Virus record (IMG/VR): IMGVR_UViG_3300035002_000022
Coordinates: 6,192-70,191 of that record
Source of the DNA: a virus
Strand: one strand, 5' to 3'
Length of the DNA: 64,000 nt
Both the position numbers and the translations under genes were made by a program. Below, piece by piece: positions 6,171 to 49,962 of this stretch (its first letter is position 1; each line of letters starts with the position of its first letter). The notes below the pieces were generated by a model, which saw only the letters and a program-made list of their open reading frames with translations, was not told the origin of the DNA and made no database searches.

Positions 6171-6545
6171 ATGTCCAACCACTTAACTAAAGCTTTCCAC
6201 CGTCTGAGCCTGAAAACACTAAGCAGCGCGATCGTTAGTGGTGTTGCTGCTTTCCTTGCCACTGGCGCTGCCACCAATCACTACCTGGAGAACTATCCAG
6301 AAACCACAATTCAGGGGCGTGAGCGCTTTCTGGGTGTGGTGATGACGCACATTGCGCCTTTTGCGGGCTTGACTGCTGTAGCGGCAGTAATCGCCACAGC
6401 CTTAGCCATACCAGAGCGAGATGATGATGCAGTGGTAGCCAAATTCATTGCTCGACAGTTTAATCGAGGCACACTTACGGCTACTGAGCTAGAAGTACTC
6501 AGCAACCTGGTTTCGCTCCGAGAGGATCAAAAAACCAATCCGTAG
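6171..6545 (+). CDS. two-TM membrane protein
   Basis: Probable start ATG 6171 (MSNHL); two hydrophobic helices. Confidence 0.65.
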   Translation: MSNHLTKAFHRLSLKTLSSAIVSGVAAFLATGAATNHYLENYPETTIQGRERFLGVVMTHIAPFAGLTAVAAVIATALAIPERDDDAVVAKFIARQFNRGTLTATELEVLSNLVSLREDQKTNP

Positions 6546-8957: not shown

Positions 8958-10682
8958 ATGGCTGAGAACGCTGACTTAGTAAGAGCCCTTACAAAAATAA
9001 ATCAACGGCTGGATGGCATTGAGTCAGGACTAAAACGATCGCAGTCATCAACGAAGCGCGATCGCAAGAGCAAAGATCATGATGCTGAAAAGTTGGTCAA
9101 GTTTGTCAATCGCAAACTTAAAGCAGCTTCAGACGACATCCAGGAAGCGCTCTATCTCAATACGCTAGGCTTTCATCTGATTGCGCCGTGGGTTTGTATT
9201 GGAGTGCTGCTAGTGGGACAGCAAGCAAAAACGCTAGACCCGAAGGATTGGGTGCGCGTGGTCTTGACGATGATTAACCCTGTGGCTGGTCTAGTGCCGA
9301 TGGACAGCAAGACACCTGAACCGAGCGGCGATACTGTGATTGATCTTGCCAAAGTTACAGCAGGCGAGAAGATTGGCAGTTACGAAGTCACTAGTGGCTA
9401 CGGACCGCGTAACTCCCCCGGTGGTATCGGATCGACTTCCCATAAAGGTGTAGATGTGGCTTTGCCATCTGGCACACCCATTAAAATGCCTCTAGATGGC
9501 AACGTGAAATGCCATGACCAAAGTGAAGGCAATGCAGCAGGCACTTATGCAGTGATTGTGCCGACTGAAGGCACTTATGAGTTTATGGCAGCGCATCTGT
9601 CACAGTGCAACTCAGGCACCTATAAAGCAGGAGCTACGATCGCCCTTTCTGGTAACACAGGCAATTCAACTGGACCGCATTTGCATTGGGCGCAAAAGCC
9701 CAAAGGTGGTAGCTACATGCCGCCGATGCGGGGTTACTTAGAATTAGCTGTGGTGGGGCAAGCGTCGATCGTTGTGGCAAATCCAGTGATCAAGGCGATC
9801 GCCACCCAGGAATCAGGCGGCGACTATACTCAGGTCAACCGTGATTCTGGAGCGCTAGGCAAGTATCAGATCATGCCTGACAATGTGCCGTCCTGGTCGA
9901 AGGAGTGCTTAGGGCAATCGATTAGTGCTCAACAGTTTTTAGGTAGTTCCAGTCTCCAAGAAAAAATTGCGACTTGCAAACTAACACAAGAGTTTGAGCG
10001 ATCGCGTAAGGCTGGTGAGAGCAGTTTTGAAGCCTGTCGATCGACCGCTGCATTCTGGTACTCAGGCAATGCCAGTAATAAGAACAGCAGCAAGCCTCAA
10101 GGCGGTTATCCGTCTATTCAGGATTACACGATTCAGGTTTGCTCTAAGGTTGGCAAGCAGACTGAGGTTGCTGCTAGTCGTGGAGCACAGACGACCTTTG
10201 CAATATATGCAGGTTACGAAATCGGTAGCGCTGTGAGTCTTGGCAGAGGGAAGCTGCTCACGAATTACCACGTGGTCAAAGGCAGCAATACAGTTAACGT
10301 CAAATTATCAAACGGCTTTATTACTCGCGCCAAGTTAATCAAGCAATCCCCATCAGAAGATTTAGCGTTGTTGTCAGTCTCTACTGCGTTGCCTGGTGTG
10401 CCGCTGGCGGCAAATGTGCGTCAGGGTGAGCGAATTACAGCGATCGGTAATCAGCTTGGCAAGATGACACGCACAACGGGTAGTGTGAGCGCTATCAGTG
10501 CCATGGTGCAGCATTCAGCCCATCTCGATCGCGGCAACAGCGGTGGGGCATTGCTGAACGATCGAGGGCAGTTAGTCGGCATCAATGCTCAATGTGATGC
10601 TGATGAGCGTGGCAATTGCAAAGCTGGCGGCAATGGTTTTGCAATTCCAGTCAATAAAGTCAGGAGGTTCATCGATGGCTGA
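8958..10682 (+). CDS. multidomain cell-wall hydrolase: TM + M23 peptidase + lysozyme-like domain + trypsin-like (S1) protease
   Basis: HKGVD and HLH (M23); QESGG..GALGKYQ (lysozyme-like); TNYHVV, EDLALL, GNSGG (His-Asp-Ser triad). Confidence 0.85.
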   Translation: MAENADLVRALTKINQRLDGIESGLKRSQSSTKRDRKSKDHDAEKLVKFVNRKLKAASDDIQEALYLNTLGFHLIAPWVCIGVLLVGQQAKTLDPKDWVRVVLTMINPVAGLVPMDSKTPEPSGDTVIDLAKVTAGEKIGSYEVTSGYGPRNSPGGIGSTSHKGVDVALPSGTPIKMPLDGNVKCHDQSEGNAAGTYAVIVPTEGTYEFMAAHLSQCNSGTYKAGATIALSGNTGNSTGPHLHWAQKPKGGSYMPPMRGYLELAVVGQASIVVANPVIKAIATQESGGDYTQVNRDSGALGKYQIMPDNVPSWSKECLGQSISAQQFLGSSSLQEKIATCKLTQEFERSRKAGESSFEACRSTAAFWYSGNASNKNSSKPQGGYPSIQDYTIQVCSKVGKQTEVAASRGAQTTFAIYAGYEIGSAVSLGRGKLLTNYHVVKGSNTVNVKLSNGFITRAKLIKQSPSEDLALLSVSTALPGVPLAANVRQGERITAIGNQLGKMTRTTGSVSAISAMVQHSAHLDRGNSGGALLNDRGQLVGINAQCDADERGNCKAGGNGFAIPVNKVRRFIDG

Positions 10683-13213: not shown

Positions 13214-13403
13214 GAGCGTGCTCTTCCCTCCTATTCGCCAACAATTGCTTGCTTTCGGGAGTGAGTGAATCTTCCAGTCCTCTCACCCACTCCCGAATCA
13301 ATTCCGTTTTTGACCGCGCCACCTGATCTGAGTAGACTTCCAAAATGTCCATCTCACCAACCAAAATATCTGCGTTCAACCTGACACCTTTTCGCTTTGT
13401 CAT
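13206..13403 (-). CDS. ribbon-helix-helix (CopG-like) protein
   Basis: VRLNADILVGEMDILEVYSDQVARSKTELIREWVRGL. Confidence 0.7.
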   Translation of the reverse strand: MTKRKGVRLNADILVGEMDILEVYSDQVARSKTELIREWVRGLEDSLTPESKQLLANRREEHALS

Positions 13404-13407
13404 TTGC

Positions 13408-13433
13408 TATAATGTGAGTAGTAGTTACTCACA
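13408..13433 (+). promoter_or_regulatory. tnpB -10 box plus palindromic operator
   Basis: TATAAT 13408-13413, then perfect inverted repeat TGTGAGTA-N5-TACTCACA (13413-13433). Confidence 0.65.
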
Positions 13434-13440
13434 GCTTATC

Positions 13441-14544
13441 ATGCTCCTAGGTTTCAAGACGGAACTCAGGTTAAACAACGAGCAGCGCATAGTGTTGGCG
13501 AAACATGCTGGCACTGCTCGTCACGCTTACAACCAGGGTCTTGCTTTAACCAAACAGGTGCTTGATTGGAATACTACACACCCAGAAGATAAGATCAAGT
13601 TCCCGACAGCAATTGACTTACACAAGTGGTACGTTGCATCTATCAAATCTGCCAATCCTTGGATATACGAAGTGTCTAAATGCGCTGGTCAATACGCGCT
13701 GAAAGCGTTGCGTGATGGGTGGGATCGGTGCTTTAAGAAAATCTCTAAGCCGCCAAAATTCAAGAAAAAAGGACAGCGTGATGCATTTAGATTAGATGGT
13801 ACGATCAAAATTTTAGGCGTTAATCATCTTCAACTGCCCGTAATTGGAGTGTTGCGGACGTTTGAAAACTTGCCGCAATCGTTCAAGCCAAAGAGTGTCA
13901 CGATTAGTCGTCAGTCCGATAAGTGGTTTGTTAGTTTCAATCTAGAAGTTGAGCCAACCCAGACAGAAAAAACCAATCTATCTGTAGGTGTTGACCTTGG
14001 CGTGAAGCATTTTGCTACCTTGTCTAACGGTCAAGTGTTCGACGTGCCTGCGTTGTACAAGCGGCTCAAAGTGAAGATTGCGAAGTTGCAATATGTCAAC
14101 CGTCATAAAGTCATTGGCTCTCAAGGTTATAAAGACTTTCAAGCTAAAGTCGCTCGACTTCACTACCGTTTGTTTTGCGCTCGCAAGGACTTCTTAAATA
14201 AGCTGACAACCTATCTAGCCAAAACTTTTCAGGTCGTCTGCATTGAAAATCTGAACGTATCGGGGATGCTGAAGTTTGGCAGGCTGGCGGGTGCTGTAGC
14301 CATGCTGGGCTTTTACGAGTTCCGTAGGCAACTGGCTTATAAGTGCAAGCTTTACGGTTCTCGACTGTCTGTAATCGGACGCTGGGAGCCTTCTAGTAAA
14401 CTACATCACAAGTGTGGTTGGAAGCATGAAACGCTCAAACTCTCAGACAGAATTTTCTACTGTCCTGAGTGTGATGAATCAATTGACCGTGATCTAAATG
14501 CGTCTCTGAATATAGAGCGCATCGGGCTGAGTCTCAGTTCGTGA
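13441..14544 (+). CDS. tnpB: RNA-guided endonuclease TnpB (IS607-like)
   Basis: Start MLLGFKTEL; RuvC-I GVDLG, RuvC-II IENL, Zn finger HxxC..CxxC, RuvC-III DRDLNA. Confidence 0.92.
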   Translation: MLLGFKTELRLNNEQRIVLAKHAGTARHAYNQGLALTKQVLDWNTTHPEDKIKFPTAIDLHKWYVASIKSANPWIYEVSKCAGQYALKALRDGWDRCFKKISKPPKFKKKGQRDAFRLDGTIKILGVNHLQLPVIGVLRTFENLPQSFKPKSVTISRQSDKWFVSFNLEVEPTQTEKTNLSVGVDLGVKHFATLSNGQVFDVPALYKRLKVKIAKLQYVNRHKVIGSQGYKDFQAKVARLHYRLFCARKDFLNKLTTYLAKTFQVVCIENLNVSGMLKFGRLAGAVAMLGFYEFRRQLAYKCKLYGSRLSVIGRWEPSSKLHHKCGWKHETLKLSDRIFYCPECDESIDRDLNASLNIERIGLSLSS

Positions 14545-20318: not shown

Positions 20319-21203
20319 TTAACCCTCTAATTGCCGTGCTTGTCTTACCTGCCCATTCAAGGCTTTTTGCTGCATTCCCCAAACAAACAGGTTGGCAGCA
20401 GCATTGTCTTGGGTCAAAATGCGACGAGCTTCAGCATACCTTGACTCTGCAATGACGTAGTGCTGACGCAAATAAGCAGCCTCTTCCAGCCCGTCTCCAG
20501 TCTCGTAGTCAATGCCGATCGCTTTGAGCCGCTCTTTAGCTTTGCTCATGTCTTTCTTTGAGCTTGGATTTAGACCAGCATCCTTTAAGAGAGATGTCAG
20601 CGATCGACCTTTAGCTGTCTTGCCAACTACTAAATCGGTACCCTGCTCAATGAAAACGGTTTCTGGAGCTGGTGGTGCTAACTGAATTAGCTGTTCGCCT
20701 CTAGCTTCTGCCATCACACGTCGCCCAGTTTCCTCCCCCATCGTCGCAGTGACAGCAAAAAACGTCGTCTCACGATCGCGTTTCAATTTTTCAAGCTCTA
20801 ACTCTAGTTCTAATTCTCTCAGTCTTTCATTTTGAGCGGGAACGACTACTTCTGCTTCCCTAGTTTTCACAGCGAAATACGACTGAGCGGAGGCAATTTC
20901 CGGCTTGCGTGGATCTCCGTTCATCGCAACTAAGTAAGCACCAAGTCGCGAAAGTTTGTAATCTTCCATCGGTCTACCCCCTAAAGGGTTTTTTCCGGTA
21001 TCGCGGCTAAAGTGCTCTATGACTGGGTTTCCAGTGTTTTCACAGGCAAGCTTTGCACGGCTAATCACAGGGCTGAAATGCTTCCATTCGGAATAGCCAA
21101 GCAACGGCATCAATTCACGACCAGACCAATACTCATTACCTGCTTCGTCAATACGGCAGATTGAGTCAAAGAGATTAGAGGCTGCACGAGAAAGGTTAGG
21201 CAT
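20319..21203 (-). CDS. Bro-N/DinD-like antirepressor
   Basis: EYWSGRELMPLLGYSEW..DYKLSRLGAYLVAMNGDPRKPEIASAQSYF. Confidence 0.85.
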   Translation of the reverse strand: MPNLSRAASNLFDSICRIDEAGNEYWSGRELMPLLGYSEWKHFSPVISRAKLACENTGNPVIEHFSRDTGKNPLGGRPMEDYKLSRLGAYLVAMNGDPRKPEIASAQSYFAVKTREAEVVVPAQNERLRELELELELEKLKRDRETTFFAVTATMGEETGRRVMAEARGEQLIQLAPPAPETVFIEQGTDLVVGKTAKGRSLTSLLKDAGLNPSSKKDMSKAKERLKAIGIDYETGDGLEEAAYLRQHYVIAESRYAEARRILTQDNAAANLFVWGMQQKALNGQVRQARQLEG

Positions 21204-21927: not shown

Positions 21928-22212
21928 ATGCACCTGACCTATAAAGATGTTTTGCCGATTACGCGCCGTGCCTTTAACTTCACTCAGCGACTGCTCTACG
22001 CTCATTCTCAACCATACAAGGATTGGCTGATCATACCGACAGCCACACCAGAAGGGCGTTTTGCCTTCCGTGTCTTTGACCCCGATGGCATGGATTGGAC
22101 TGATCCGTATGGCGAAAACTACGTTTCGCTTACTGCTGCCCTAGAGATGGGTGAGCACTACATCAACCTGCAACTGGCGGAGTTAGAGGAGTCGTTACGT
22201 GAATCAGACTAA
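21928..22212 (+). CDS. hypothetical protein, cassette A gene 2
   Basis: 58/94 identical to 28458..28742 by manual alignment. Confidence 0.8.
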   Translation: MHLTYKDVLPITRRAFNFTQRLLYAHSQPYKDWLIIPTATPEGRFAFRVFDPDGMDWTDPYGENYVSLTAALEMGEHYINLQLAELEESLRESD

Positions 22213-22963
22213 CCCCTACCAGTTTCCGCAACCGAAGTACAAAGCGGGTCAGCATATCCAGACTGAGTGGCGCACTGATGACACAAAAGAACTGGTGATC
22301 GAACAGGGCGTAATCATTGCGCTGACCTATACCGATTACGAAGCCGATCGGCATCATTACGAATCCGGCTTCACCTACCACGTGCAGTTTTACAAGCCGC
22401 GTGTCTTTGTTGATGACGTACCAGAGAACGATATTGAAATCATTGGAGACATTGCTATGAGCCAATCTACTGCTACATCGCGTCAGTACAAGTTTCCACA
22501 ACCTAAGTTTGAGGAAGGTCAACATGTCCAGACCCCAGGAGGCAATTGCGGCGTGGTGTCTGCCTTTACCTACACGACCGACACAGAAGATTGTCGCCTT
22601 GAGCCTGGTTTCAATTACCGCATTGATTTTTATAAGCCTATTCAGATGAGCGATGTGTCGCACGAAAGCAAGCTCTTTCCACTAGATGAGAGAGGCGCGA
22701 TGGAGCGTTTGATCATTGCCGTACCTGAATCTGTACCAGTGCCTAAGTTTCAACTCTTTGAGGAGGCTTTCTACGGCAAGCACAAAGGGGTGATTGTAGC
22801 GATGGCTTATGAAAATCCGTTTGAAGCGCTGCGGCATAACTCGGAACCCGGTTGGCGTTACGACTTAAGCTATTCGCTCAATCGGACTCCGCTAGAAGCT
22901 GTATCTGTCAGTGAAGATGACACTCTGATCTATGAAGACTCGCTAAGCCGTTGTAGCTGTTAG
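22199..22963 (+). CDS. three-repeat small beta-barrel (SH3/KOW-like) protein, cassette A gene 3
   Basis: Three PKY/PKF..G..I/V...GF/W.Y units; paralogue of 27977..28471. Confidence 0.75.
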   Translation: MNQTNPYQFPQPKYKAGQHIQTEWRTDDTKELVIEQGVIIALTYTDYEADRHHYESGFTYHVQFYKPRVFVDDVPENDIEIIGDIAMSQSTATSRQYKFPQPKFEEGQHVQTPGGNCGVVSAFTYTTDTEDCRLEPGFNYRIDFYKPIQMSDVSHESKLFPLDERGAMERLIIAVPESVPVPKFQLFEEAFYGKHKGVIVAMAYENPFEALRHNSEPGWRYDLSYSLNRTPLEAVSVSEDDTLIYEDSLSRCSC

Positions 22964-22987: not shown

Positions 22988-23017
22988 AAGCCCGGTAGAT
23001 TCACGTCTACCGGGCTT
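22988..23017. terminator. bidirectional terminator shared by cassette A and the pilin
   Basis: AAGCCCGGTAGA/TCTACCGGGCTT 12-bp stem. Confidence 0.75.
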
Positions 23018-23041: not shown

Positions 23042-23575
23042 TTATTTACCCAAATCCGCAAAATCCGGCTCAGCGCAAGACGGACCAACATTAGCGACGA
23101 AAGTTACTGCTGCTGGGTTACCGCTAGCAGGTTTTACTGACTGACAGAGCACGGCTAGAGTGGTAGCTTCCCCTTCTGTCGTGCCAGTCGTGAAGCCGAT
23201 GCCGACACCACCTGTATACGCCCTTAGTGTAGTGGTGAAAAGGGGGTAGGCAACATTAGCGACAGCGGATTCAGAGGCATCTTGGATCGCGTAAGTGTAG
23301 TTAGTCGTCTCGGTTTTGATGCCTAAGCCCAATAACGAAACATCACTAGAGAAAGCGTTGTTTTCCAGAAAGTGAGCCTGTTGAGCACGGTTCATAGAAC
23401 CTGCATAAGTCTTAGCTTCAGACTCTTTCGCTTTGTTTGCCTGGTTCAGGAAAGATGGCAGGGCGATCGCGGAGAGAATGCCGATGATGATGATAACAAC
23501 TAGCAGTTCAATCAAAGTGAAGCCGTCGTCTGACTTTTTGATAGCGTTGATGAGCTTGAATTGAATTGGTTGCAC
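23042..23575 (-). CDS. pilA: type IVa major pilin (cyanobacterial PilA1-like)
   Basis: GTG 23575 after GGAG; leader ..IKKSDDG|FTLIELLVVIIIIGILSAIALPSFLNQANKAKESEAK; E5; two C-terminal Cys. Confidence 0.9.
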   Translation of the reverse strand: MQPIQFKLINAIKKSDDGFTLIELLVVIIIIGILSAIALPSFLNQANKAKESEAKTYAGSMNRAQQAHFLENNAFSSDVSLLGLGIKTETTNYTYAIQDASESAVANVAYPLFTTTLRAYTGGVGIGFTTGTTEGEATTLAVLCQSVKPASGNPAAVTFVANVGPSCAEPDFADLGK

Positions 23576-23606
23576 AAGGAACTCCAGATTGGATTGAGTA
23601 GAACAT

Positions 23607-26600
23607 TTACAAGGCACGACCTGCACCACTGTTGTAGTAGTACGAGAGGTCAACGTTGCCACCCTCAGAAGTTGGCAGGTCTTTGAAGAAACCCGTGTAG
23701 CGCATCCTGCCCCATAAGTTAGCGCCGTCTTCAGAGCGATACCCCAGCGTTAGATTCTGTGCCGTGTCGCCGTGCTGTATGGTGGTAGTTGCCTTATTGA
23801 ATGCGCCTGCATTCACGCTAATGCCAATTTCGTTTGGGGAACCAGGCTTGTAGTAAATGGTGAGAAAATAGAACGTGCTAGAGGTAGCTCCACTAAAATT
23901 ACTAGCCAAAACTGTTTGCGAAGTAGGCGCACCCGTTGCAATGTTATACAAAACATAAACAAACCGTGACCCGTCGAAGTACAAGACGTATTCAAAAATA
24001 GCATTTGAATAATTCGTACCCGGCACAAAACCCTTTTGAAGAATGAAGTAAGCAGTAGTTGAATTTAAATAAGCCCATGTACACCAAGTAAAAGCAGCAT
24101 TGCCTACGGATATGTCGGCAGTATCAGCCCCGGTCAAAGTAGAGTTAGAACCCCCGCTTAGAGTGACATAATCGCCACTTGTAAAAGTTGCGCCTGCACC
24201 AGCATCAAGGTTAGGTGTACCCACAACCGCATTGCCATTACTTGTGAGGTTCCAATAAGCAGAAGGAGAACCAGCAGAAGGAACACTAGCAGCTAGGGTT
24301 GCGGGGGTAGCATTTAACCTGAGCACAGGTGCCACACCCGATCGCGCTACAGATGCATTCCGGCTACCACTCAACGCACTCAACCTGAGTACAGGTGCCA
24401 CACCGGAACGAACCACGGGCAAAGCGTCAAAAGGATATTGAGGATTAGAGACTAGGCTAGTGATTTCGGCGCTACTCAGAACGCGGTTCCACATCGTTAC
24501 GCAGTCAATCCATGTGCCAGCGAAGAAACCTGAGTTGGGCTGATTCAGTAAGAAACGATTACTGCCACCTGTCCGTACAATCAGCGGCTTACCTGTTGCT
24601 GTAACGGTTGTGAAATTAACACTATCAGTTAAGTTTCGGACAGCTAACCCTGCGGTGCCTGTAGGATTATTCCAAATTACTACGAGGTAGGTTTTGTTGA
24701 TGCTGTACGATTCGCTTGTCTCTAGCCCCACATCTTGAGCCGAATCAAATAGCGCTACGTCTCCGTTGCCAGTCGTAGACGCATACTGGAAGGTGATTTT
24801 AGTGCCATTAAAGACAACCTGCATTTGAGTGGCACCAGAGCTTGTGTTGTAGTAGCACAACGGAATATAAGTGTAGCTAGAGCTTTGCGGTCTGAAAACA
24901 AAGGCTTGCGTAAACGATTTGTCGTCAATCCGCAGCGCTGTGCCAGTAGCAATGCTGATTTGCAGGAAAGAACCATAGACACCAGAACCAGCAGTGTCGC
25001 TACTGGTAAAGGCTTGACCGTTATAGCCAGTGACATAGGTAGGTGTTGCTGTTTGTAGGCTGCCAGCATTTTGATCAAAGTAGCGACAGATCCAATTATT
25101 CGTACTAATTGCATCATTGAGGCTGTTGTCAAGCTTCCAGGCACCGATCGCGCCTGTAGCCAGAGAGCTGCCGCCAATCACTCCGACACCTGAACCACTC
25201 AAGGCAGAAAGCCTGAGTACAGGAGCTACGCCCGATCGCGTAATTGTTGTAGCAGCTTTGCCACTAGGGGCAAACAAGCGAATGATCGGTGCCACACCAG
25301 AACGACTGATCAACGAACCGAACGAGCCAGAGATACTACTGAGTTGCAGGACTGGCGCTACACCTGATCGCATCACTGTAGGCACATAGGGCAGCACTGG
25401 CACAGTAGCGTTAGCGGGGATGGTTGCCAGCCAGATTAACTCACACCCCACAGTGGCGCGAGTGCGATCGTGCGAGAAGCTCAGCCCGTCAACTTGATAA
25501 ACAATCGTGTCATACACCTTTGACCAAACACCACTGCTAAACACAAAGCGCGGTTCTCTGACGTGGATGACCGGGTAAGGGTTTTCATTGGTCAACCATT
25601 CGTCAGTCAGCCCTAGCAGGATTTGCGCTCCTTGTCTGCGTCCGACGAGATCCTCACCTATTTCTTGAGCGATCGCGCTTGCTTGCTCATTGCTGATCAT
25701 CCAGGGGATTGAGATAAAGCGGCGACGGTCTTGCTGATTGGAACCTGCAAAGCTGCCAAATAACGCCACGCCGTCTAGCTGTCGTTCATTGCGTCCGTAG
25801 CGCTGTGGTCGCCGTTCAGCAGCAGGAGGGTTGTTTTGCCCACTGCCGCTCACCGTAGAAATTGGATTGGTTGTAGTGAGTCTGATTTTCTCGCTGACCG
25901 TTGCCGTATCAGGCACAGCATCAGGAAAGACATCAATCAGCGGTGCGGCTGGCGCTTGTGTGTACTCCCATTGCCCCGGTCTGATTTCGCGGTACGTCTG
26001 GATTTCACTCGCAGCAGGGACTTGGAAAATCACGCCTGCTGTCAATGGATTCACGTCAGGCAGAACGCTTGCCAGCATGCGGCTAGTGCGGCTTTCAATC
26101 TCGTCTACTACTTCTTTGGGCGTGTAGTGGTAGTAGGTGATCGTGCGAGTATCGATCGACGGACTAAAAGCCGCGTAATTTGCCTTCTGAGCAGTGCTTA
26201 AGCCACTCCAAAATTCGCTGGCTGCTACTCGAAACGGACGCACGATCGTTGTCTCGTCTTGCAGCAACTTCCCATTGCCGCAGACATTAACCTCGTAAGT
26301 CTTGATATTAGTCGTGCGGCGACTGAAGATGAGCGAATCATCACCTGGCGAATCGTCAGGTGCTAATAAGCCACGAGGCTCAAGTTCCTCGACTTCATGC
26401 AGGATTTGCGTTGCGTCCTGTGCGTCTCTAGTGCAGGTAATCCGAGTGACAAGATTAGAGCCAGGGGCATAAGTGATTTTGCAAACGGTTGTGTCTTGCC
26501 AGGTATCCGTGATGTCGTAGGTTGAGCCTTGCACGCGAATTTCTTCGCATGGCGTTTCTTGCCCAGCGACAGGCATATACTCAGCCTCGTCTTCTCCGAT

Positions 26601-27320
26601 CGTCACTGTTAGCAACGGCGTAGCATTGACATCAGCACGATAGTCTACAGCGGTGAGATTGCCAGCAGGCGATCGCTTCTGCACCAGCGAGTAAAACCGG
26701 GCATAGGCAACCTCTCCTGCAACCGCTAAATAGCTGCCACTGTCATTAGAAACAGGGTAATAGAAAGGATAGTTTTCGATTGAGCCTTCCCATGTGCCCT
26801 GTACGCCTGCTTTTACTAGTAGCTTACGGACTACTTCACCAGGGCTTTGCACAATGCCAACATTGCTGAGAGTTGGATCTTCAGGGTCACACGCTAGCAA
26901 AGGGTTAGGGTTGGGTGCTGCATAATCTTTTAGCTTCAACCAGCAACCAACTTCTAGCGTAATGCGTGCATCTTGGGGTTGCGGTGATTTTGGCGGTAAA
27001 GGCTCCTTAAGGATGAAGAGTTCACTGAAGCGATGGTCAATCCATGCCCCGCTGCTATTTAAGACCTGTACACGAAAAAACTGCCCGCGACTCCATAAAG
27101 CACGGGGAATGATGCCGCCCCCAATGTCATAGTTAAGCCTGGGGTTAAGCAGCGCTACATTGTTGTCTAATGCTGTCAATACTAATGTGCCGCTGATTTT
27201 GGCTAAGCCACCGCGATCGCGCTTGTCAAAGCCTGCTGCTAAGGTGACAAAGGCTTCATCAAACAGGATCTCATCCGGTCCTACTAAGATTCTAGTTTTA
27301 ACAGCAGTAGCGTTTACCAT
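23607..27320 (-). CDS. tail hub/receptor-binding protein with two C-terminal LamG (concanavalin-like) domains
   Basis: Follows a Dit-like gene; GAWKLDNSLND..IDCVTMWNRVLSSAEI and AYWNL..MRYTGFF LamG patterns. Confidence 0.7.
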   Translation of the reverse strand: MVNATAVKTRILVGPDEILFDEAFVTLAAGFDKRDRGGLAKISGTLVLTALDNNVALLNPRLNYDIGGGIIPRALWSRGQFFRVQVLNSSGAWIDHRFSELFILKEPLPPKSPQPQDARITLEVGCWLKLKDYAAPNPNPLLACDPEDPTLSNVGIVQSPGEVVRKLLVKAGVQGTWEGSIENYPFYYPVSNDSGSYLAVAGEVAYARFYSLVQKRSPAGNLTAVDYRADVNATPLLTVTIGEDEAEYMPVAGQETPCEEIRVQGSTYDITDTWQDTTVCKITYAPGSNLVTRITCTRDAQDATQILHEVEELEPRGLLAPDDSPGDDSLIFSRRTTNIKTYEVNVCGNGKLLQDETTIVRPFRVAASEFWSGLSTAQKANYAAFSPSIDTRTITYYHYTPKEVVDEIESRTSRMLASVLPDVNPLTAGVIFQVPAASEIQTYREIRPGQWEYTQAPAAPLIDVFPDAVPDTATVSEKIRLTTTNPISTVSGSGQNNPPAAERRPQRYGRNERQLDGVALFGSFAGSNQQDRRRFISIPWMISNEQASAIAQEIGEDLVGRRQGAQILLGLTDEWLTNENPYPVIHVREPRFVFSSGVWSKVYDTIVYQVDGLSFSHDRTRATVGCELIWLATIPANATVPVLPYVPTVMRSGVAPVLQLSSISGSFGSLISRSGVAPIIRLFAPSGKAATTITRSGVAPVLRLSALSGSGVGVIGGSSLATGAIGAWKLDNSLNDAISTNNWICRYFDQNAGSLQTATPTYVTGYNGQAFTSSDTAGSGVYGSFLQISIATGTALRIDDKSFTQAFVFRPQSSSYTYIPLCYYNTSSGATQMQVVFNGTKITFQYASTTGNGDVALFDSAQDVGLETSESYSINKTYLVVIWNNPTGTAGLAVRNLTDSVNFTTVTATGKPLIVRTGGSNRFLLNQPNSGFFAGTWIDCVTMWNRVLSSAEITSLVSNPQYPFDALPVVRSGVAPVLRLSALSGSRNASVARSGVAPVLRLNATPATLAASVPSAGSPSAYWNLTSNGNAVVGTPNLDAGAGATFTSGDYVTLSGGSNSTLTGADTADISVGNAAFTWCTWAYLNSTTAYFILQKGFVPGTNYSNAIFEYVLYFDGSRFVYVLYNIATGAPTSQTVLASNFSGATSSTFYFLTIYYKPGSPNEIGISVNAGAFNKATTTIQHGDTAQNLTLGYRSEDGANLWGRMRYTGFFKDLPTSEGGNVDLSYYYNSGAGRAL
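24318..25370 (-). repeat. five 27-bp RSGVAPVLR repeats (66-bp period) interrupted by a LamG domain
   Basis: Copies at 25344, 25278, 25212, 24384, 24318. Confidence 0.85.
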
Positions 27321-27826
27321 TACGCAGGCACGACCTTATACTCTTCAAACGCTAAGTCAATGATGACTTTCCCACCTTCCTGTGCAAAAGTAGGTTGCTT
27401 AGAGAACCACACATCAAACTGTGCGAAATACTCAGTTAGTCCATAAGTATTTGTGGTCACAGTATTAAAGGGAGACGGCGCTACAGCACGGGTACGGGTG
27501 CCCAGTTCATTAAAGCTTTGATACGCATCAATGAGCCTGATTTGTGCTGCCTGTTTTTTCACAAACAAATCGTTGTGAATGTCATACATTGCTTGCACAA
27601 CGGGCTGAAGCGCGATCGGTGCTAATACTTTCAACGTCCACACATGAGGTTCTGGCAGGAAACCGCCATATTTCACAGGGGTATTGTAGGCACTGCGTTC
27701 AATCCCCGGCGCTTCTGCCCTCACCCGTGGGAAGCTGTCCTGTTTCGCAAAAATAACTTCCCCAGATCCGGCGTAAATTGGCATGGTGATGCCTGCAATA
27801 CTAAATGATATGTAATTGATCGCCAT
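27320..27826 (-). CDS. distal tail (Dit/gpM-like) protein
   Basis: 168 aa; ERSAYNTPVKYG..PHVWTL; lies between the tape measure region and the hub; TAATG coupling. Confidence 0.55.
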   Translation of the reverse strand: MAINYISFSIAGITMPIYAGSGEVIFAKQDSFPRVRAEAPGIERSAYNTPVKYGGFLPEPHVWTLKVLAPIALQPVVQAMYDIHNDLFVKKQAAQIRLIDAYQSFNELGTRTRAVAPSPFNTVTTNTYGLTEYFAQFDVWFSKQPTFAQEGGKVIIDLAFEEYKVVPA

Positions 27827-27926: not shown

Positions 27927-27951
27927 GCCCGTAGATCATTGATCTACGGGC
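27927..27951. terminator. hairpin terminator of cassette B
   Basis: GCCCGTAGATC-att-GATCTACGGGC; similar stem to 22988-23017. Confidence 0.65.
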
Positions 27952-27976: not shown

Positions 27977-28471
27977 CTAGCAGCCGCACCGACTCAGCGA
28001 ATCCTCAAAAATCAGCGTGTCATCTTCACTGACAGAAACAGCTTCCAACGGTGTGCATCCGAAGGAAAAGCTTAAGTCATAGCGCCATCCGGTCTGTGAG
28101 TCCTGCCGTAGTGATTCATAGGGATTTTCATACGCCATCCCCACGATCGTACCCTTGTACTTGCCATAATATGCCTCCTCAAACAATTGGAATTTAGGGG
28201 TAGGCACAGAAGTAGGGATGGCAATAATCAAGCGCTCCATGACACCTCCTTTATCCAATGGGAAAACTCTGCTCTCGTGCAGCACATCGCTGATCTGATG
28301 CGGCTTGTAGAAATCAATGTGGTAATTGAAGCCTGGATCAAGCCGACAATCATCCGTTTTAGTTGTGTAGGTGAAAGCGGCAATGATGCCACACTCACCC
28401 GATGATGATTGGATGTGCTGCCCTTCTTCGTATTTGGGTTGTGGGAATTGGTAAAGGTTAGTCTGATTCAC
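27977..28471 (-). CDS. two-repeat beta-barrel protein, cassette B gene 3
   Basis: Aligns to repeats 2-3 of 22199..22963. Confidence 0.75.
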   Translation of the reverse strand: MNQTNLYQFPQPKYEEGQHIQSSSGECGIIAAFTYTTKTDDCRLDPGFNYHIDFYKPHQISDVLHESRVFPLDKGGVMERLIIAIPTSVPTPKFQLFEEAYYGKYKGTIVGMAYENPYESLRQDSQTGWRYDLSFSFGCTPLEAVSVSEDDTLIFEDSLSRCGC

Positions 28472-28742
28472 GTACCATCTCCTCTAAATCAGCCAAATGG
28501 ACGTTGACCCAGTGTTGCGCCATTACTAAGGCAGCTTCAGCAGAGCAGTACGTTTCGCCGTACATATCCTCGTGCCGATCGCCATCGGGATCGAACACCA
28601 CAAAAGCGAAACGACCATCAGGCGTGACGGTAGGGACGATTAGCCAATCCTGATAAGTCTCAGCGTGGCTATAGAGCAGGCGTTGCGTCAGGTTGAAACC
28701 AAAGCGGGTGATTTCGGATAAGTCTTCGTAAAGTAAGTGCAT
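28458..28742 (-). CDS. hypothetical protein, cassette B gene 2
   Basis: Paralogue of 21928..22212; same 14-bp overlap with the next gene. Confidence 0.8.
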   Translation of the reverse strand: MHLLYEDLSEITRFGFNLTQRLLYSHAETYQDWLIVPTVTPDGRFAFVVFDPDGDRHEDMYGETYCSAEAALVMAQHWVNVHLADLEEMVRESD

Positions 28743-28813
28743 CGTTCTAAGTCCTTCTAAAAGTGCAGTGGGTAAGGAAGGGGCTAGGTGCCCCTGTTGC
28801 AGCAGGTAGAGGA
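28743..28813 (-). ncRNA. structured intergenic RNA motif, copy B
   Basis: TCCTCTA/TAGAAGGA, TGCA/TGCA, inner AGGGGC/GCCCCT. Confidence 0.6.
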
Positions 28814-29044
28814 TTAGAACCGTGCAGCGTGACCTCTGCGCCAGCCATTCATGTAGTCAGCGTTGCTGTAAAGCGAACCACGTAAACCCAGGTTGTTAAA
28901 CCCATCGCGAAAGCCAGCACTTTCCATTTCATCAGGCGATATCTGACGGGCACGGACAAGAGCAAGATTAAGACTCGGATCAGAGGAGCCGTAGAGAATG
29001 GTTGCGGTTTCTACGGTCTTGGAAGGGGTGATTGCTTGAGGCAT
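28814..29044 (-). CDS. hypothetical protein, cassette B gene 1
   Basis: 76 aa; not visibly similar to cassette A gene 1. Confidence 0.55.
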   Translation of the reverse strand: MPQAITPSKTVETATILYGSSDPSLNLALVRARQISPDEMESAGFRDGFNNLGLRGSLYSNADYMNGWRRGHAARF

Positions 29045-29121
29045 AATAATGAAGTCTGCTAATAAGTGGACTGAGTGGGAGGGCGGTTAACTTTGGTCGG
29101 TGAGCCGCCTTTCCTTTGTCC

Positions 29122-29150
29122 ACTATATCTATTTCTATGCAGATAGTCAA
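29122..29150 (-). promoter_or_regulatory. sigma70-type promoter of cassette B
   Basis: TTGACT-17 bp-TATAGT. Confidence 0.65.
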
Positions 29151-29247
29151 CTATTTATAAATGGGTATATGCTTAATTACATAAGGGTTCAAAACCTTTG
29201 TATCAACCTGTTAACTGGAGGTGTGTAGAAAGATGAGAGTCATTTTC

Positions 29248-29520
29248 ATGCGAAAAGAGATCCTTCAGGATCGACTAAAGCAATTAGGGTGGACGCGGTA
29301 TCGTCTCACTCAAGAATATTGCCGTGTCCGTGGTGAGCCTACTACGGCAGACTCTGTAAAGCGCTATGAGGGGACTGTTAAAAGAGCGCTAGAAAATCCT
29401 AACCGCTCAAGCACTGAAGTTATTGAGGCGTTGGTTAAAGCGCTCGACGGTGAGCAAGTAATTAAGTGGAACAATCGGGAAGAGATTGTCACTGGTCAGG
29501 AAGAGGTCAAAGTTGGCTAA
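29248..29520 (+). CDS. HTH-like regulator divergent from cassette B
   Basis: LQDRLKQLGWTRYRLTQEY...STEVIEALVKALDG resembles XRE. Confidence 0.6.
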   Translation: MRKEILQDRLKQLGWTRYRLTQEYCRVRGEPTTADSVKRYEGTVKRALENPNRSSTEVIEALVKALDGEQVIKWNNREEIVTGQEEVKVG

Positions 29521-29594
29521 TAAACACCCTAGTATTTAGGGTGTTAAACCAAAAATAAAGACTAATAGATTAATAAAATTCAACCAGCGGTAAA

Positions 29595-30548
29595 ATGACT
29601 GACTTTGACACGGCTAAATTCTTTGTGGGAGATCTATGCCCTCACAATCATTTTTGGCAAGGTGAACCGCGATCGTTGCGTTACACAAAAGATCGTGGCT
29701 GCGTTGAGTGCAAGAAAGCTTATCACCAGCGCAACAAAGAACGCATCCTAGCCAAAAAGTCTGAATACCACAGAGAAAACATTGATAGCAGGAAGGCTTA
29801 CAATAAGCAATACATTGACAAGAACCTAGAGAGGATAAAGGCTCAACAAAAAGAGTATCGTTTAGCGAACAAAGATAAAATTACAGCTAGAAGCATTGAA
29901 TACAGGAGAAAAAATAGAGAAAGAAAGCTTGAATACATGCGTCGATATTACGCATTGAACAAAGACAGAATAAATGAATACAGCAGAGCGTATCATCATC
30001 GAAACGCTGACAGAAACAACGCCTATAAAAAAGCTTGGCATAGAGCAAATAGGCAGCATGTTTTAGATCAGAAAAAACTGGATCGAAAGCTGAATCCACA
30101 GAAGTATAAAGAAAAAGACCGGGAAAGGTATTCCAAGCACAGAGAGACTTGTCTAGCTAGAAATAAAGCTTATCGGCAGACAGAAAGGGGAAGACTGGTA
30201 CGAAGGCAACTTGAAAGAAAGAGAGAGGCGGTCAAGAAGGGCAACCATAGCGCCAAATACATCCCTGAACAACTATTGTCGCTTCGTCAAGAGTTCGGCA
30301 ATTTATGCGCTTATTGTCAATCGGGCGGAGCCAAAACTATGGATCACTTCATACCAGTCAGCAAGGGCGGATCTGATGTTTTAAGCAATTTACTCCCTTG
30401 TTGCTGGTCGTGCAACAGCAGCAAGCAGGATAAAGACCCAAAAGAATGGTATTTTAGTCAGTCGTTTTCTCAGAAAAAGCGGTGGGCTAAAATTCTAAAA
30501 GTGCTAGGAAAGACGGATAGCAACTACTTGGTACTGCCTTTGTTGTGA
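29595..30548 (+). CDS. HNH endonuclease with a basic repetitive helical region
   Basis: CAYC..TMDHFIPVSKGGSDVLSNLLPCCWSCNSSK. Confidence 0.9.
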   Translation: MTDFDTAKFFVGDLCPHNHFWQGEPRSLRYTKDRGCVECKKAYHQRNKERILAKKSEYHRENIDSRKAYNKQYIDKNLERIKAQQKEYRLANKDKITARSIEYRRKNRERKLEYMRRYYALNKDRINEYSRAYHHRNADRNNAYKKAWHRANRQHVLDQKKLDRKLNPQKYKEKDRERYSKHRETCLARNKAYRQTERGRLVRRQLERKREAVKKGNHSAKYIPEQLLSLRQEFGNLCAYCQSGGAKTMDHFIPVSKGGSDVLSNLLPCCWSCNSSKQDKDPKEWYFSQSFSQKKRWAKILKVLGKTDSNYLVLPLL

Positions 30549-30582
30549 CTTGTAAATAGCATGGTAGATGATTTCTCTAGCG

Positions 30583-31230
30583 CTATTTCTTGGTGTAGTA
30601 CATTGCCGCAAAGACAACCCCTAAAATGATTAGAATTATTCCTGCTGGAGGGAACACAAGAAGCATTAAAACGCCAAGCCCACCAAAGATAAATCCCATC
30701 CGGTTGTACTGATCTGCCTGTTGGGTGGATCCCTGTTTTTTGAGGTCTGAACTAAGTTCTGCCAAGTCTTTGACATACATCCATTGATCAAGGGTTGGGT
30801 TATAAATATAGTCGCTTGGCTTAACACTGCCATCCCTAAGCCATTGTCGCAGCGTTTCAATGTCAGGCACTTCTATTTCTTTATCGCTCTGCTTGACCCT
30901 GAAAACCTTTAGCTGGCTCACTTCTGAGACTTGTATCCGCGCTAACTCCACCCGATCGCTCCACGCTGGCACATCCTCACCCGTTAGCTTGCCGTAGACA
31001 ACAAGACTACTTACGTTTGCTACTCCTAACCCTTGCACTCCTTTGACAATAAAAGGGACGATCGCTCTCTGCTCAGGCACCGTCGCTCCTTCAACCATGA
31101 CGTGCAAATAGCCATCGGCAAGTCTAACTTTAGCGACGAGTTGTTGGGGCTTGAGCGATCGGTTAATCAATGCTGCTATAGCTTGCGGGTTGCCTTGTCT
31201 GGCAGCAGTTAGCACTTCCTGTGGGGTCAT
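30583..31230 (-). CDS. membrane protein: cyanobacterial N-domain + GYF_2-like domain + C-terminal TMs
   Basis: ARQGNPQAIAALINRSL..; LRQWLRDGSVKPSDYIY..QW; hydrophobic end. Confidence 0.65.
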   Translation of the reverse strand: MTPQEVLTAARQGNPQAIAALINRSLKPQQLVAKVRLADGYLHVMVEGATVPEQRAIVPFIVKGVQGLGVANVSSLVVYGKLTGEDVPAWSDRVELARIQVSEVSQLKVFRVKQSDKEIEVPDIETLRQWLRDGSVKPSDYIYNPTLDQWMYVKDLAELSSDLKKQGSTQQADQYNRMGFIFGGLGVLMLLVFPPAGIILIILGVVFAAMYYTKK

Positions 31231-40380: not shown

Positions 40381-40399
40381 CTGTCACCTCCGATCAGCT

Positions 40400-41758
40400 A
40401 AAACAACAGGACTCCTGCACTCTAATGAGGTCGAGAGTCGGGAGGAATGCGGATCTGGCGGAGACACGGAGCCGGACAATAATTCACCGGGCATACAGTT
40501 GTACTCCTGTTTCTGATGAGGTAGAATAGGGCTATGAATCAAGTCCTGACTGTCTCCTGCAAGCTCAAGGTATCCGAATCGCAAGCTATAAAACTTGCTG
40601 CGACACTGAACGCTTTTGGGCAGGCGTTGAACTGGGTGAACCAGAACACACCTGAGAAGATAGCCAATGCGGTCAAACTGCAGTCCCTTTGTTATTACGA
40701 AGTCCGCGCTCGTTTTGGTCTGTCGAGTAATTTGGCTCAACAGGTCTGTAGGCGGGTAGCAGGTTCTCGCAAGGTCGCCAAACAAAAGCACCGTCCGGTC
40801 AAGGCGTTCAAGCATAGCTTTGCGACCTACGACGCTCGGATCTTCTCGTTTCGAGAAAAGGACTGGACGGTTTCGCTCACTACTGTTGATGGTCGTGAGC
40901 GGTTTGAGTTGGCAATTGGTAACTACCAACGGGGAATGCTGGCAGACGCTAACCCCAAGTCCGCCACACTGATCAAGCGACAGGATGGTTCTTACTACAT
41001 CCAAATTTGTCTGGAGTCGGAGCCGCCAGAGCCGCAAGACGGTGGCGATATTTTGGGTGTGGATTTGGGGCGCACTGACATTGCTCATACTTCTGAGGGT
41101 CAAACCTGGGAAGGTCAGAGTATCAACAAGGTGCGTGACCACTACACCAACTTGAGAGCGAATCTCCAGCATAAAGCCAGTAAAGGCACACGCAGTACAC
41201 GCCGCCGAGTGCGTGAACTGTTGCAACGGTTGTCTGGTCGTGAGCGTCGTTTTCAAAGCTGGTTGAATCACAACATCTCGAAAAGTCTTGTTCAAACCGC
41301 CAAGTCCAAACAAGCCAGCATCGCGCTGGAAGATTTGACAGGCATTCGTGAGTGCACGAACCAACAACCCCGCAACAAAACCGAGCGCAGACGGTCGAAC
41401 AGTTGGGCATTCAACCAACTGAGACTGTTTATTGACTACAAAGCTTTGGGAGCAGGGGTAAAGGTCATCATGATCAAGCCTGCCTATACCAGCCAAACCT
41501 GCCACCAATGCCTGCACATTCACCCCGTCAAAAGGGAGTCGTACAGGCACGGTAAGCGGTTTAAGTGTGGTCATTGCGGTTGGCATGGTGATGCGGATTT
41601 GAACGGGGCGAAAAACATTCAAAGAATCGGGTTGTCGGTAATACAGCCTGGAGGCTCCTGGTTATCTTGCGAGATCGCTGGCGGGCTACTGAAACTTCCT
41701 GGGCTTTTGGAAAGCCCGCGATGCACTGCCTAAGCGGTCAGCATTGGGAAGACGTTAC
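40400..41758 (+). mobile_element. IS200/IS605-family tnpB-only element (left end uncertain, 40381-40410)
   Basis: Left hairpin CTCCTG..CGGGAG; right end AAAG + hairpin + AGACG-TTAC (ends 41758), matching IS608-type guide/cleavage pairing. Confidence 0.75.
40534..41733 (+). CDS. tnpB: RNA-guided endonuclease TnpB (IS605/IS1341-type)
   Basis: GVDLG, ALEDL, CHQC..CGHC, DADLNGAKNI; TAGAAT -10 upstream. Confidence 0.93.
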   Translation: MNQVLTVSCKLKVSESQAIKLAATLNAFGQALNWVNQNTPEKIANAVKLQSLCYYEVRARFGLSSNLAQQVCRRVAGSRKVAKQKHRPVKAFKHSFATYDARIFSFREKDWTVSLTTVDGRERFELAIGNYQRGMLADANPKSATLIKRQDGSYYIQICLESEPPEPQDGGDILGVDLGRTDIAHTSEGQTWEGQSINKVRDHYTNLRANLQHKASKGTRSTRRRVRELLQRLSGRERRFQSWLNHNISKSLVQTAKSKQASIALEDLTGIRECTNQQPRNKTERRRSNSWAFNQLRLFIDYKALGAGVKVIMIKPAYTSQTCHQCLHIHPVKRESYRHGKRFKCGHCGWHGDADLNGAKNIQRIGLSVIQPGGSWLSCEIAGGLLKLPGLLESPRCTA

Positions 41759-49323: not shown

Positions 49324-49962
49324 GTGGCAAAGTCTAAATACACTCCAGACCGAGTGCAAACCATCATCGACGCGATCGCTCAGACTGGGGCAGACCGTGC
49401 AGGTTGGCAAGCGGGTAAGATCAGCGAAGATACTTTTTATGACTGGGTAAAGCGATATTCCGAGTTTTCCGAGTCGGTATCTAGGGCTAAGGATGAATAC
49501 CGTGACACGTGTCCAGGAACGTTGGTAAGGCAAGCTAGAAAGGCGTTTGCCGACTATCTGTTTGGTCGGATGGAACGTGTCACATACACGAAAGAAACGG
49601 GCATCAATGCACGCACTGGTGAGCCTTACGAAAAAGAGATCACGCAAAGGGTGCCAGTAGGAGTTCCTAAATGGGCGATCGAACGAGTTTTAGGCAAGCC
49701 GTTAGACATTCTAGAAGCGGTTAGCACCCTTTCTGAAGCAGGAGTTTTACCACGCTGGTTAGTGCAGGCTGTAAGCGATGAAGTGGGCAACGCTAGAGAA
49801 GGGATTACAGAAGTATTTGCAGGAGTCATCCCCGATCGCGACAATCGACGGGTTAGACCTGGACTCTCTGAAGAAACAGCAGCAGCGATTAGAGCACACC
49901 TTTTGGGCATCCAGCCCACCGATGCTACTGCCTTACCAACAACGGTGGATCTCAGACAATAG
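49324..49962 (+). CDS. terS: terminase small subunit
   Basis: SKYTPDRVQTIIDAI..AGKISEDTFYDW HTH; directly before terL. Confidence 0.7.
   Translation: MAKSKYTPDRVQTIIDAIAQTGADRAGWQAGKISEDTFYDWVKRYSEFSESVSRAKDEYRDTCPGTLVRQARKAFADYLFGRMERVTYTKETGINARTGEPYEKEITQRVPVGVPKWAIERVLGKPLDILEAVSTLSEAGVLPRWLVQAVSDEVGNAREGITEVFAGVIPDRDNRRVRPGLSEETAAAIRAHLLGIQPTDATALPTTVDLRQ

Follow-up and report, generated by a model that had tools for sequence, protein, structure and literature searches.

It was not until 2026 that a phage-made version was shown by experiment to replace a pilus component, in the case of a Pseudomonas minor pilin; for major pilins, such replacement has been a suggestion. In the demonstrated case, the P-FimU proteins of F10-like prophages of Pseudomonas aeruginosa (JBD68, LES3, and others) are incorporated into the pilus and block the adsorption of tip-binding phages while leaving pilus function unimpaired (Sztanko et al., Cell Rep 2026, PMC12952977). 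P-FimU is expressed from the prophage even though its gene is embedded among tail genes, and its specificity and diversity are tied to the tail-tip protein (PMC12952977). The same paper, which does not mention cyanobacteria, also lists P-PilA genes, found in Xylella fastidiosa prophages and four groups of non-temperate phages; it suggests, as an untested idea, that their products enter the pilus and inhibit adsorption (PMC12952977). The present analysis concerns a pilin gene in a stretch of 64,000 nucleotides of the IMG/VR virus record IMGVR_UViG_3300035002_000022 (positions 6,192 to 70,191; the whole stretch is called the window here), which belongs to a prophage of a filamentous cyanobacterium. 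Based on its sequence and predicted structure, the gene product is a type IVa pilin of the cyanobacterial PilA1 type. A first-pass annotation of the window, made from the letters alone, had named prophage interference with pili in Pseudomonas as a precedent, and for the prophage FimU homologue this mechanism has indeed been shown by experiment (PMC12952977).

The window pilin resembles P-FimU in being a prophage-encoded homologue of a host pilus subunit that lies in the tail gene cluster and is predicted to have the host-like fold. However, P-FimU copies a minor tip pilin and is 28% identical to the host FimU, whereas the window pilin is a version of the major fibre subunit, with 79% identity to its host counterpart. 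The positions of the two genes also differ, P-FimU being encoded between the tail tube and chaperone genes and the window pilin directly behind a candidate binding domain. Moreover, P-FimU belongs to another host phylum and has a demonstrated function, while the window system is known from sequence. Like the window pilin, P-PilA is a phage-borne homologue of the major pilin PilA, but it is about 50% identical to the host PilA, occurs in proteobacterial hosts, and has not been reported in linkage with a receptor-binding domain. A different parallel is provided by Llp of phage T5, encoded beside pb5/oad, and by Cor of phages phi80 and N15. These exclusion genes are located by the receptor-binding gene and inactivate the phage's own receptor, and their products are small lipoproteins that bind the outer-membrane receptor FhuA. 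As in those phages, a key and a modifier of its lock would be co-inherited in the window. In contrast, the window product would itself stand in for a subunit of the filament that serves as receptor.

The kind of system is, then, already known. What is new here is a high-identity mimic of a major pilin, in a cyanobacterial host, that forms a unit with a lectin-like domain and has a leader lineage of its own. This makes the locus a clean, conserved case of a major subunit in cyanobacteria, where pili drive motility, aggregation, and DNA uptake. Cyanophages are known to bind the pili of marine Synechococcus (bioRxiv 10.1101/2025.09.20.677514), and a 2025 review of cyanobacterial pili is silent on phages (PMC12288463).

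The assignment to the type IVa pilins draws on several lines of evidence. The protein matches the Pfam families PF16734 (Pilin_GH; E 9e-27, 94.2 bits against a cut-off of 28.9) and PF07963 (N_methyl; E 5e-9, 35.8 bits against a cut-off of 21.2). It has a class III signal, with a short basic leader, Gly-1, Phe+1, and Glu+5 ahead of a hydrophobic helix, and Cys144 and Cys167 (precursor numbering) fall in two columns that are invariant across 50 homologues. All family-invariant positions are kept, and the frame is free of defects. In a model made with AlphaFold2 (predicted local distance difference test score, pLDDT, 86.7), a helix at residues 21-72 precedes a four-stranded sheet whose strands lie between residues 93 and 146. 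The eight best fold matches in the PDB are all type IV pilins, with probabilities of 0.80-1.00 and E-values of at least 1.7e-3, short of the 1e-3 line, and Thermus PilA4 (6xxd) matches by sequence at E 1.6e-12. The pilin thus keeps every feature required for cleavage by the prepilin peptidase PilD and for filament assembly, and it is probably assembly-competent. A canonical PilA1 locus combines a leader of the form MKxEFxAKFLQHL... with an Ogt neighbour, and the phage gene has neither. Because its leader differs and an Ogt neighbour is lacking, it is regarded as a PilA1 homologue and not as the orthologous major pilin locus. The label "major pilin" in the first-pass annotation holds in that sense, as an assignment to the PilA1 type by homology.

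The gene begins with a GTG at 23575 on the minus strand, separated by 31 bp (23576-23606) from the stop codon of the tail-tip gene at 23607-23609. An alternative in-frame GTG upstream, at 23662, would run into the tail-tip gene. The GTG at 23575 was taken as the start because three homologous phage pilin genes have an ATG at the aligned position. Behind the gene, the stem of the terminator (23017-22988, minus strand) contains 7 GC pairs and is followed by TTTTATTT. The details reported by the first-pass annotation, namely the GGAG-GTG start, the 18-residue leader, cleavage between Gly and FTLIE, the mature pilin of 159 residues with its Cys pair, the 31-bp gap, and the terminator, were all confirmed in the sequence. 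Its span of 23042-23606 takes in the spacer, as the coding sequence covers 23042-23575. It had also described the pilin as the last gene of an operon. Position, strand, the 31-bp spacing, and the terminator bear this out, and the operon itself is probable: the gene in the Dit position, the hub gene, and the pilin gene are co-oriented and bracketed by two terminator-like hairpins, and their strand, their spacing, and the lack of a promoter-like site suggest a single transcription unit. The GC content of the pilin gene (0.48) is like that of the adjoining sequence, and the gene does not have the makeup of an autonomous moron, which carries its own promoter and terminator and is often of deviant composition. 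Lastly, the earlier statement that the window contains no other pilus genes proved correct, in that a six-frame motif scan of the 64 kb found the prepilin motif of 23042-23575 and no other. The host genome encodes one prepilin peptidase (Peptidase_A24) on another contig, and PilB/PilT-type ATPases are likewise located elsewhere.

The phage carries the pilin and the LamG domain of its tail tip as a unit, and this arrangement recurs. A pilin gene directly follows a LamG C-terminus in all four phage pilin loci (4/4). In the window, the hub protein ends in LamG-2, immediately upstream of the pilin. The second locus is a prophage of "Lyngbya sp. HA4199-MV5" (genome G077; IMG/VR UViG_3300034630_000009), in which the order is tape measure, 167-aa protein, 789-aa protein, 111-aa protein, a separate 244-aa LamG protein (PF13385, E 6e-13), and a pilin 69% identical to that of the window. 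The third is on the ENA contig L016. Here the protein encoded ahead of the pilin has 372 aa and an Ig-like N-terminus; its C-terminal 230 residues share 64% identity with the window LamG-2, and the pilin itself is 68% identical to the window pilin. In the fourth, the JGI contig L151, the gene upstream of the pilin has a C-terminus homologous to the G077 LamG (35 of 49 visible residues identical). The tail modules of the four contigs are 33-34% identical or unrelated, yet the junction is kept. The four phage pilins share a short leader, homologous 5' coding DNA, and the same ribosome-binding context, all unlike host pilA; the context GGAGTTC(C/T)T ahead of the start codon is also present in L015, L016, and L151. 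The link to a receptor-binding-type gene that was first proposed for the window is therefore upheld across differing tail modules.

When the LamG domains are sorted by type, both known members of type A (2/2) and two of the three members of type B are followed by a pilin, or four of five overall. Pilin identity is 85% between the two type B loci and 68% between the two type A loci, with two LamG types being too few for statistics. With regard to the expectation that pilin and LamG alleles would co-vary, physical linkage holds (4/4), but the identities are only partly coherent, within the limits of two LamG types. A search for homologues of LamG-2 among 5.8 billion proteins returned the L016 protein as the only one. 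More distant LamG homologues (31-32% identity), found elsewhere in phage genomes, have no pilin alongside. In the phage collection, megablast with 12 kb of the locus and tblastn with the pilin gave no match, and scans of the genome collection and of metagenomes with the pilin found, beyond G077, host-type loci only.

The closest homologue of the window pilin is the host's own pilin on contig C5, which is 78% identical over the full length and 79% identical over the mature residues. The two belong to the same Pfam family, are identical over the first 35 mature residues, and share the Cys pair and a C-terminal Lys. In contrast, the phage copy has an unrelated, shorter leader, another ribosome-binding context, no Ogt gene, and other hypervariable segments. 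The host C5 pilin has the canonical PilA1 leader and an Ogt-like neighbour, and in many cyanobacteria a pilA-Ogt pair is the signature of the major pilin locus (PMC12288463, PMC9306852). At this host locus (L010:10065-14824), the pilin gene diverges from a gene for a 1182-aa TPR-GT41-methyltransferase protein, a pilA-ogt pairing with a fused methyltransferase.

Despite this similarity, the phage gene appears to have been separate from the host gene for a long time. Synonymous divergence (dS) between the two is about 2.1, against 0.65-1.06 for host orthologues between species, although dS is possibly inflated by differences in codon usage. The ratio of nonsynonymous to synonymous divergence (dN/dS) is 0.07. 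Because dS is saturated and dN/dS is this low, the gene is best read as old and separately evolving under purifying selection. Recent capture or gene conversion from the host was considered and rejected, as the synonymous differences spread over the whole gene and all phage-host and phage-phage pairs show saturated dS. Neither of two outcomes that the first-pass annotation had named as damaging was found: the pilin differs clearly from the host copy (79% identity over the mature residues, synonymous sites being saturated), and it is not absent from relatives, as three other phage contigs carry a phage-type pilin. Compared with 46 host-type homologues, the window pilin has one change (Tyr50 to His) in columns that are at least 85% conserved. 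Differences between the phage and host copies cluster at mature residues 81-90 and 131-159, the same segments that are least conserved among host pilins. The AlphaFold2 model places these segments in the loop and strand that come next after beta strand 1 and in the region beyond the first Cys, and we take the variable segments of type IVa pilins to be surface-exposed.

The phylogeny against host PilA1 that had been proposed as a check gave a mixed answer. In a maximum-likelihood tree of the mature domains, the four phage pilins fall within a clade (99/86) with genus-level PilA1 orthologues, and the dS values add a long separate evolution, but the phage pilins do not form a clade of their own. 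Common ancestry of the four is clear for the 5' end, to judge from the leader and the ribosome-binding site. The mature part may have gone through an ancient exchange with a host allele.

The reading that we favour, and to which we give about an even chance of being right, is that the pilin, a variant of the host major subunit, is built into the host pilus and masks the receptor against pilus-binding phages. The prepilin would be made from the prophage or late in infection, inserted in the inner membrane, and presumably cut by the host's single PilD, given the intact Gly-1, Phe+1, and Glu+5 and the presence of that enzyme. The host machinery could then polymerise the phage pilin with, or instead of, the host PilA1, as the 35 identical residues and the conserved invariant positions suggest. 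The surface of the pilus would change, since the observed differences sit in hypervariable segments that, to judge from other type IVa pilins, should be exposed. Pilus-binding phages would then adsorb poorly, probably including phages with this phage's own LamG and its relatives, by analogy with P-FimU and T5 Llp. By the same analogy, the outcome may be superinfection exclusion, the sparing of progeny from dead-end adsorption, or both. The LamG linkage would keep a binding specificity and the matching altered receptor together during tail-tip exchange. Swapping or doping of the host pilus subunit with masking of the receptor had been put forward in the first-pass annotation, and the comparative tests favour it with respect to a lineage of its own, its presence in relatives, the LamG linkage, and the features for PilD cleavage and assembly; the functional steps are those we infer. 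With regard to timing, the failure to detect a promoter and the 31-bp gap favour late co-transcription with the tail genes. If expression is late, the pilin would protect infected cells and progeny in the manner of T5 Llp rather than serve a classical lysogenic function.

Several observations weigh against receptor masking. Among sequencing runs, this stretch was found in the source DNA run and in no RNA run. A simple scan, which a promoter with only a -10 element could escape, found no sigma-70-like promoter ahead of the pilin in the window, L015, or L016, and because no promoter-like site was detected, the pilin is possibly made only alongside the late tail genes. The pilus itself is a presumed receptor of this phage. 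A complex prediction for hub residues 1000-1237 with the head of host PilA1 scored 0.00 and gave no answer, which is neither support nor counter-evidence. The third member of LamG type B, in genome G082, is followed by a second LamG gene and not by a pilin, and most of the related tail modules (L027-L033, hub homologues within the family) have no pilin nearby. The host genome contains at least four PilA1-like paralogues, so that one more variant may change little. Finally, a single clade of phage pilins was not recovered in the mature-domain tree: the clade of 15 rows is a polytomy, and the sister of the L016 copy is a host-type pilin (100/99). The divergence between the L016 pilin and this sister, P0035, is likewise saturated in dS.

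A more elaborate proposal treats LamG and pilin as a mobile cassette. LamG would be an adhesin for the PilA1 fibre, perhaps for a glycan added by Ogt, and the pilin would be a PilA1 allele that matches the adhesin but escapes its binding, so that phages would exchange a key together with an altered lock. This version is tentative, and we hold it somewhat unlikely. If it is true, the locus would be the first case of receptor-replacement immunity based on a major pilin and the first of its kind in cyanobacteria, and type IV pili would be primary receptors of the siphoviruses of filamentous cyanobacteria. More generally, the pairing of pilin and LamG names a candidate adhesin-receptor pair, and from such pairings the receptors that phages use could be read off their genomes. 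Confirmation of receptor masking would mean that prophages add to pilin diversity and to the competition between phages in mat- and crust-forming cyanobacteria.

The same gene could also act in ways that have nothing to do with masking. As a lysogenic-conversion factor, the extra subunit would give an alternative fibre and change motility, aggregation, biofilm formation, or DNA uptake, and the LamG linkage would reflect a shared, exchangeable operon end. The distal end of a tail module, where the pilin lies, is a common place for accessory genes. An intact, assembly-competent pilin under purifying selection is compatible with such a role, and the several PilA1-like paralogues of the host suggest functional diversification of its fibres. 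There are also viral contigs in which PilA1-type pilins lie away from the tail tip, beside endolysin and HNH genes in one case and a PAPS-reductase gene in another. In Synechocystis, the PilA1 homologue PilA2 affects transformation and not motility (PMC12288463). However, the scans of the window, L015, and L016 detected no promoter belonging to the pilin and a terminator behind it only in the window. Moreover, simple co-location poorly explains why the exact LamG junction recurs in four contigs whose tail genes otherwise differ, and conversion is considered unlikely. A pilus shut-down during lytic growth, in which late pilin floods the assembly machinery or the membrane and halts motility, retraction, and DNA uptake, would be in keeping with the late co-transcription favoured by the co-orientation with the hub gene, the 31-bp gap, and the missing promoter-like site. 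Inhibition of assembly has been considered for a truncated phage PilA, lytic phages also have PilA-like genes (PMC12952977), and unprocessed prepilin is toxic to cyanobacterial translocons (PMC12288463). Yet jamming requires neither the whole globular domain nor the disulfide pair nor the C-terminal Lys, all of which have been kept under strong purifying selection, and the cleavage site is intact, which makes this possibility improbable.

The gene slot right after a receptor-binding domain is a place of adhesins and chaperones such as T-even gp38 or Tfa. By this token, the pilin might be a virion-associated protein that attaches to the LamG tip and assists the tail in engaging or imitating the pilus machinery, and its location immediately downstream of a distal tail domain in four contigs, with apparent co-transcription with the tail genes, is what one would then see. 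The hydrophobic helix, identical to that of the host pilin over 35 residues, and the class III signal point instead to the inner membrane and the pilus machinery, and away from tail assembly in the cytoplasm. In addition, the complex prediction offered no support, although its empty score is not counter-evidence, and literature searches found no precedent, so a virion role is judged very unlikely. Least probable of all is a functionless passenger, a host pilin gene that ended up behind the tail genes through illegitimate recombination. TnpB-type insertions indicate that the prophage may be decaying, and the closest homologue is the host's own gene, as a passenger would have it. On the other side stand the saturated synonymous sites and the dN/dS of 0.07, the intact frame with all invariant positions kept, and the three other phage contigs that carry the gene with a leader type and ribosome-binding context of its own. 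On these comparisons, the passenger explanation and chance capture are largely refuted.

Table 1. Positions in the window of the pilin gene, its signals, and the phage genes around it.
Feature	Position	Strand	Basis
Phage prepilin gene (177 aa; mature 159 aa), predicted PilA1-type type IVa pilin	23042..23575	-	Translation, Pfam, AlphaFold2 model
Class III leader, phage-type, 18 codons (Gly-1, then F+1, E+5)	23522..23575	-	Sequence comparison
GGAG ribosome-binding site, 6 nt (TTCCTT) ahead of GTG start	23582..23585	-	Sequence
Intrinsic terminator of the putative Dit-hub-pilin unit	22988..23017	-	12-bp stem + T run; fold z-score -3.4
Tail-tip (hub/Tal-position) protein, 1237 aa	23607..27320	-	Translation; Laminin_G_3 E 7e-7
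LamG-1 domain (aa 796-953)	24462..24935	-	PF13385 E 7e-7
LamG-2 domain (aa 1010-1237), candidate receptor-binding domain	23610..24293	-	Weak PF13385, E 0.0014, below cut-off
Dit-position protein, 168 aa, first gene of the unit	27320..27826	-	33% identity to G077 167-aa protein
Terminator-like hairpin upstream of Dit gene	27927..27951	-	11-bp stem, 7 GC pairs
Tape measure protein, 3007 aa	31357..40380	-	phrog_2335, E 5e-27
Large terminase	49778-51259		
Bro-N antirepressor	20319-21203		

The tail-tip protein ahead of the pilin is a composite (Table 1). Its N-terminal 650 residues are conserved in related prophages. In the G077 prophage, their counterpart is the 789-aa protein encoded behind the tape measure and Dit genes, with 34% identity, and 7 of 89 genomes of the same family encode hub homologues. 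The C-terminal half holds the two LamG domains, which are separated by short RSGVAPVLR repeats. The 167-aa relative of the window Dit-position protein sits between the tape measure and the hub in G077. In a protein atlas, the neighbours of the Dit-position protein and of the hub N-terminus are weakly viral or tail-like (tail-tube-like for Dit) and serve as leads. A scan of IMG/VR with the hub protein alone gave no confirmed relative, and an AlphaFold2 model of LamG-2 built from an alignment of two sequences (pLDDT 36.8) was unusable. The tape measure, Dit, and hub genes are contiguous in the G077 prophage, unlike in the window, where about 3.4 kb of small genes on both strands (27977-31230), including one for a GYF_2-domain protein, lie between the tape measure and Dit-hub. 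The window tape measure protein is of exceptional length, from which a very long tail is expected, and the PHROG profile covers only residues 1032-1723 of it.

Paralogous gene pairs face each other across the Dit-hub-pilin block, at 21928-22963 (plus strand) and 27977-28742 (minus strand). The larger genes of the pairs (22199-22963 and 27977-28471) both match, at 53-54% identity, one 168-aa gene that is convergent with and just downstream of the L016 pilin. Because both pairs match this gene, the flanking cassette appears to travel with the LamG-2/pilin module. In G082, the chromosome of Leptolyngbya sp. BL-A-14, a 78% homologue of the G077 LamG is encoded at L030:13254-14939, and a second LamG-like gene occupies the pilin slot. 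The hub homologue nearby is shortened to 235 aa, and the region is probably a prophage remnant.

PilA1-type pilins with 42-65% identity are also encoded on four IMG/VR viral contigs (L157, L158, L159, and L160). The leaders are readable in L157, L158, and L160, and all are non-canonical. The L157 pilin gene is convergent with a collagen-like tail-fibre operon, that of L159 comes after an endolysin and an HNH gene, and that of L160 is near a PAPS-reductase gene. Major pilins carried by phages may be widespread among cyanophages.

The window corresponds to positions 6194-70193 of contig C34 in a cyanobacterial assembly (G000; 6.08 Mb in 38 contigs), and the source organism is placed among Leptolyngbyaceae such as Stenomitos and "Lyngbya sp. 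HA4199". Phage genes, among them those for an HNH endonuclease and a ParB-like protein in addition to those in Table 1, flank the pilin on both sides, and host genes (RadC, then trehalose-synthesis amylases) start near C34:70.7-72.7 kb. For this reason, the element is identified from its gene content as a siphovirus-type prophage of at least about 64 kb, with the pilin well inside. No tyrosine integrase was found on contig C34. Within the prophage, 13345-14544 holds an IS605 OrfB/TnpB-type gene (Pfam OrfB_IS605, Cas12f1-like_TNB), and a second TnpB-like open reading frame at 40384-41733, beside the tape measure start, is overlapped by a long antisense reading frame. With these TnpB-type insertions, the prophage may be partly disrupted or decaying. 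A 574-aa fusion of Peptidase_M23 with a trypsin-like protease domain (8958-10682) may be a lysis or ejection enzyme. The octamer HIP1 (GCGATCGC) occurs in the prophage at 5-15 copies per 10 kb, near its density in the rest of contig C34, which suggests a long association of the phage lineage with HIP1-rich hosts.

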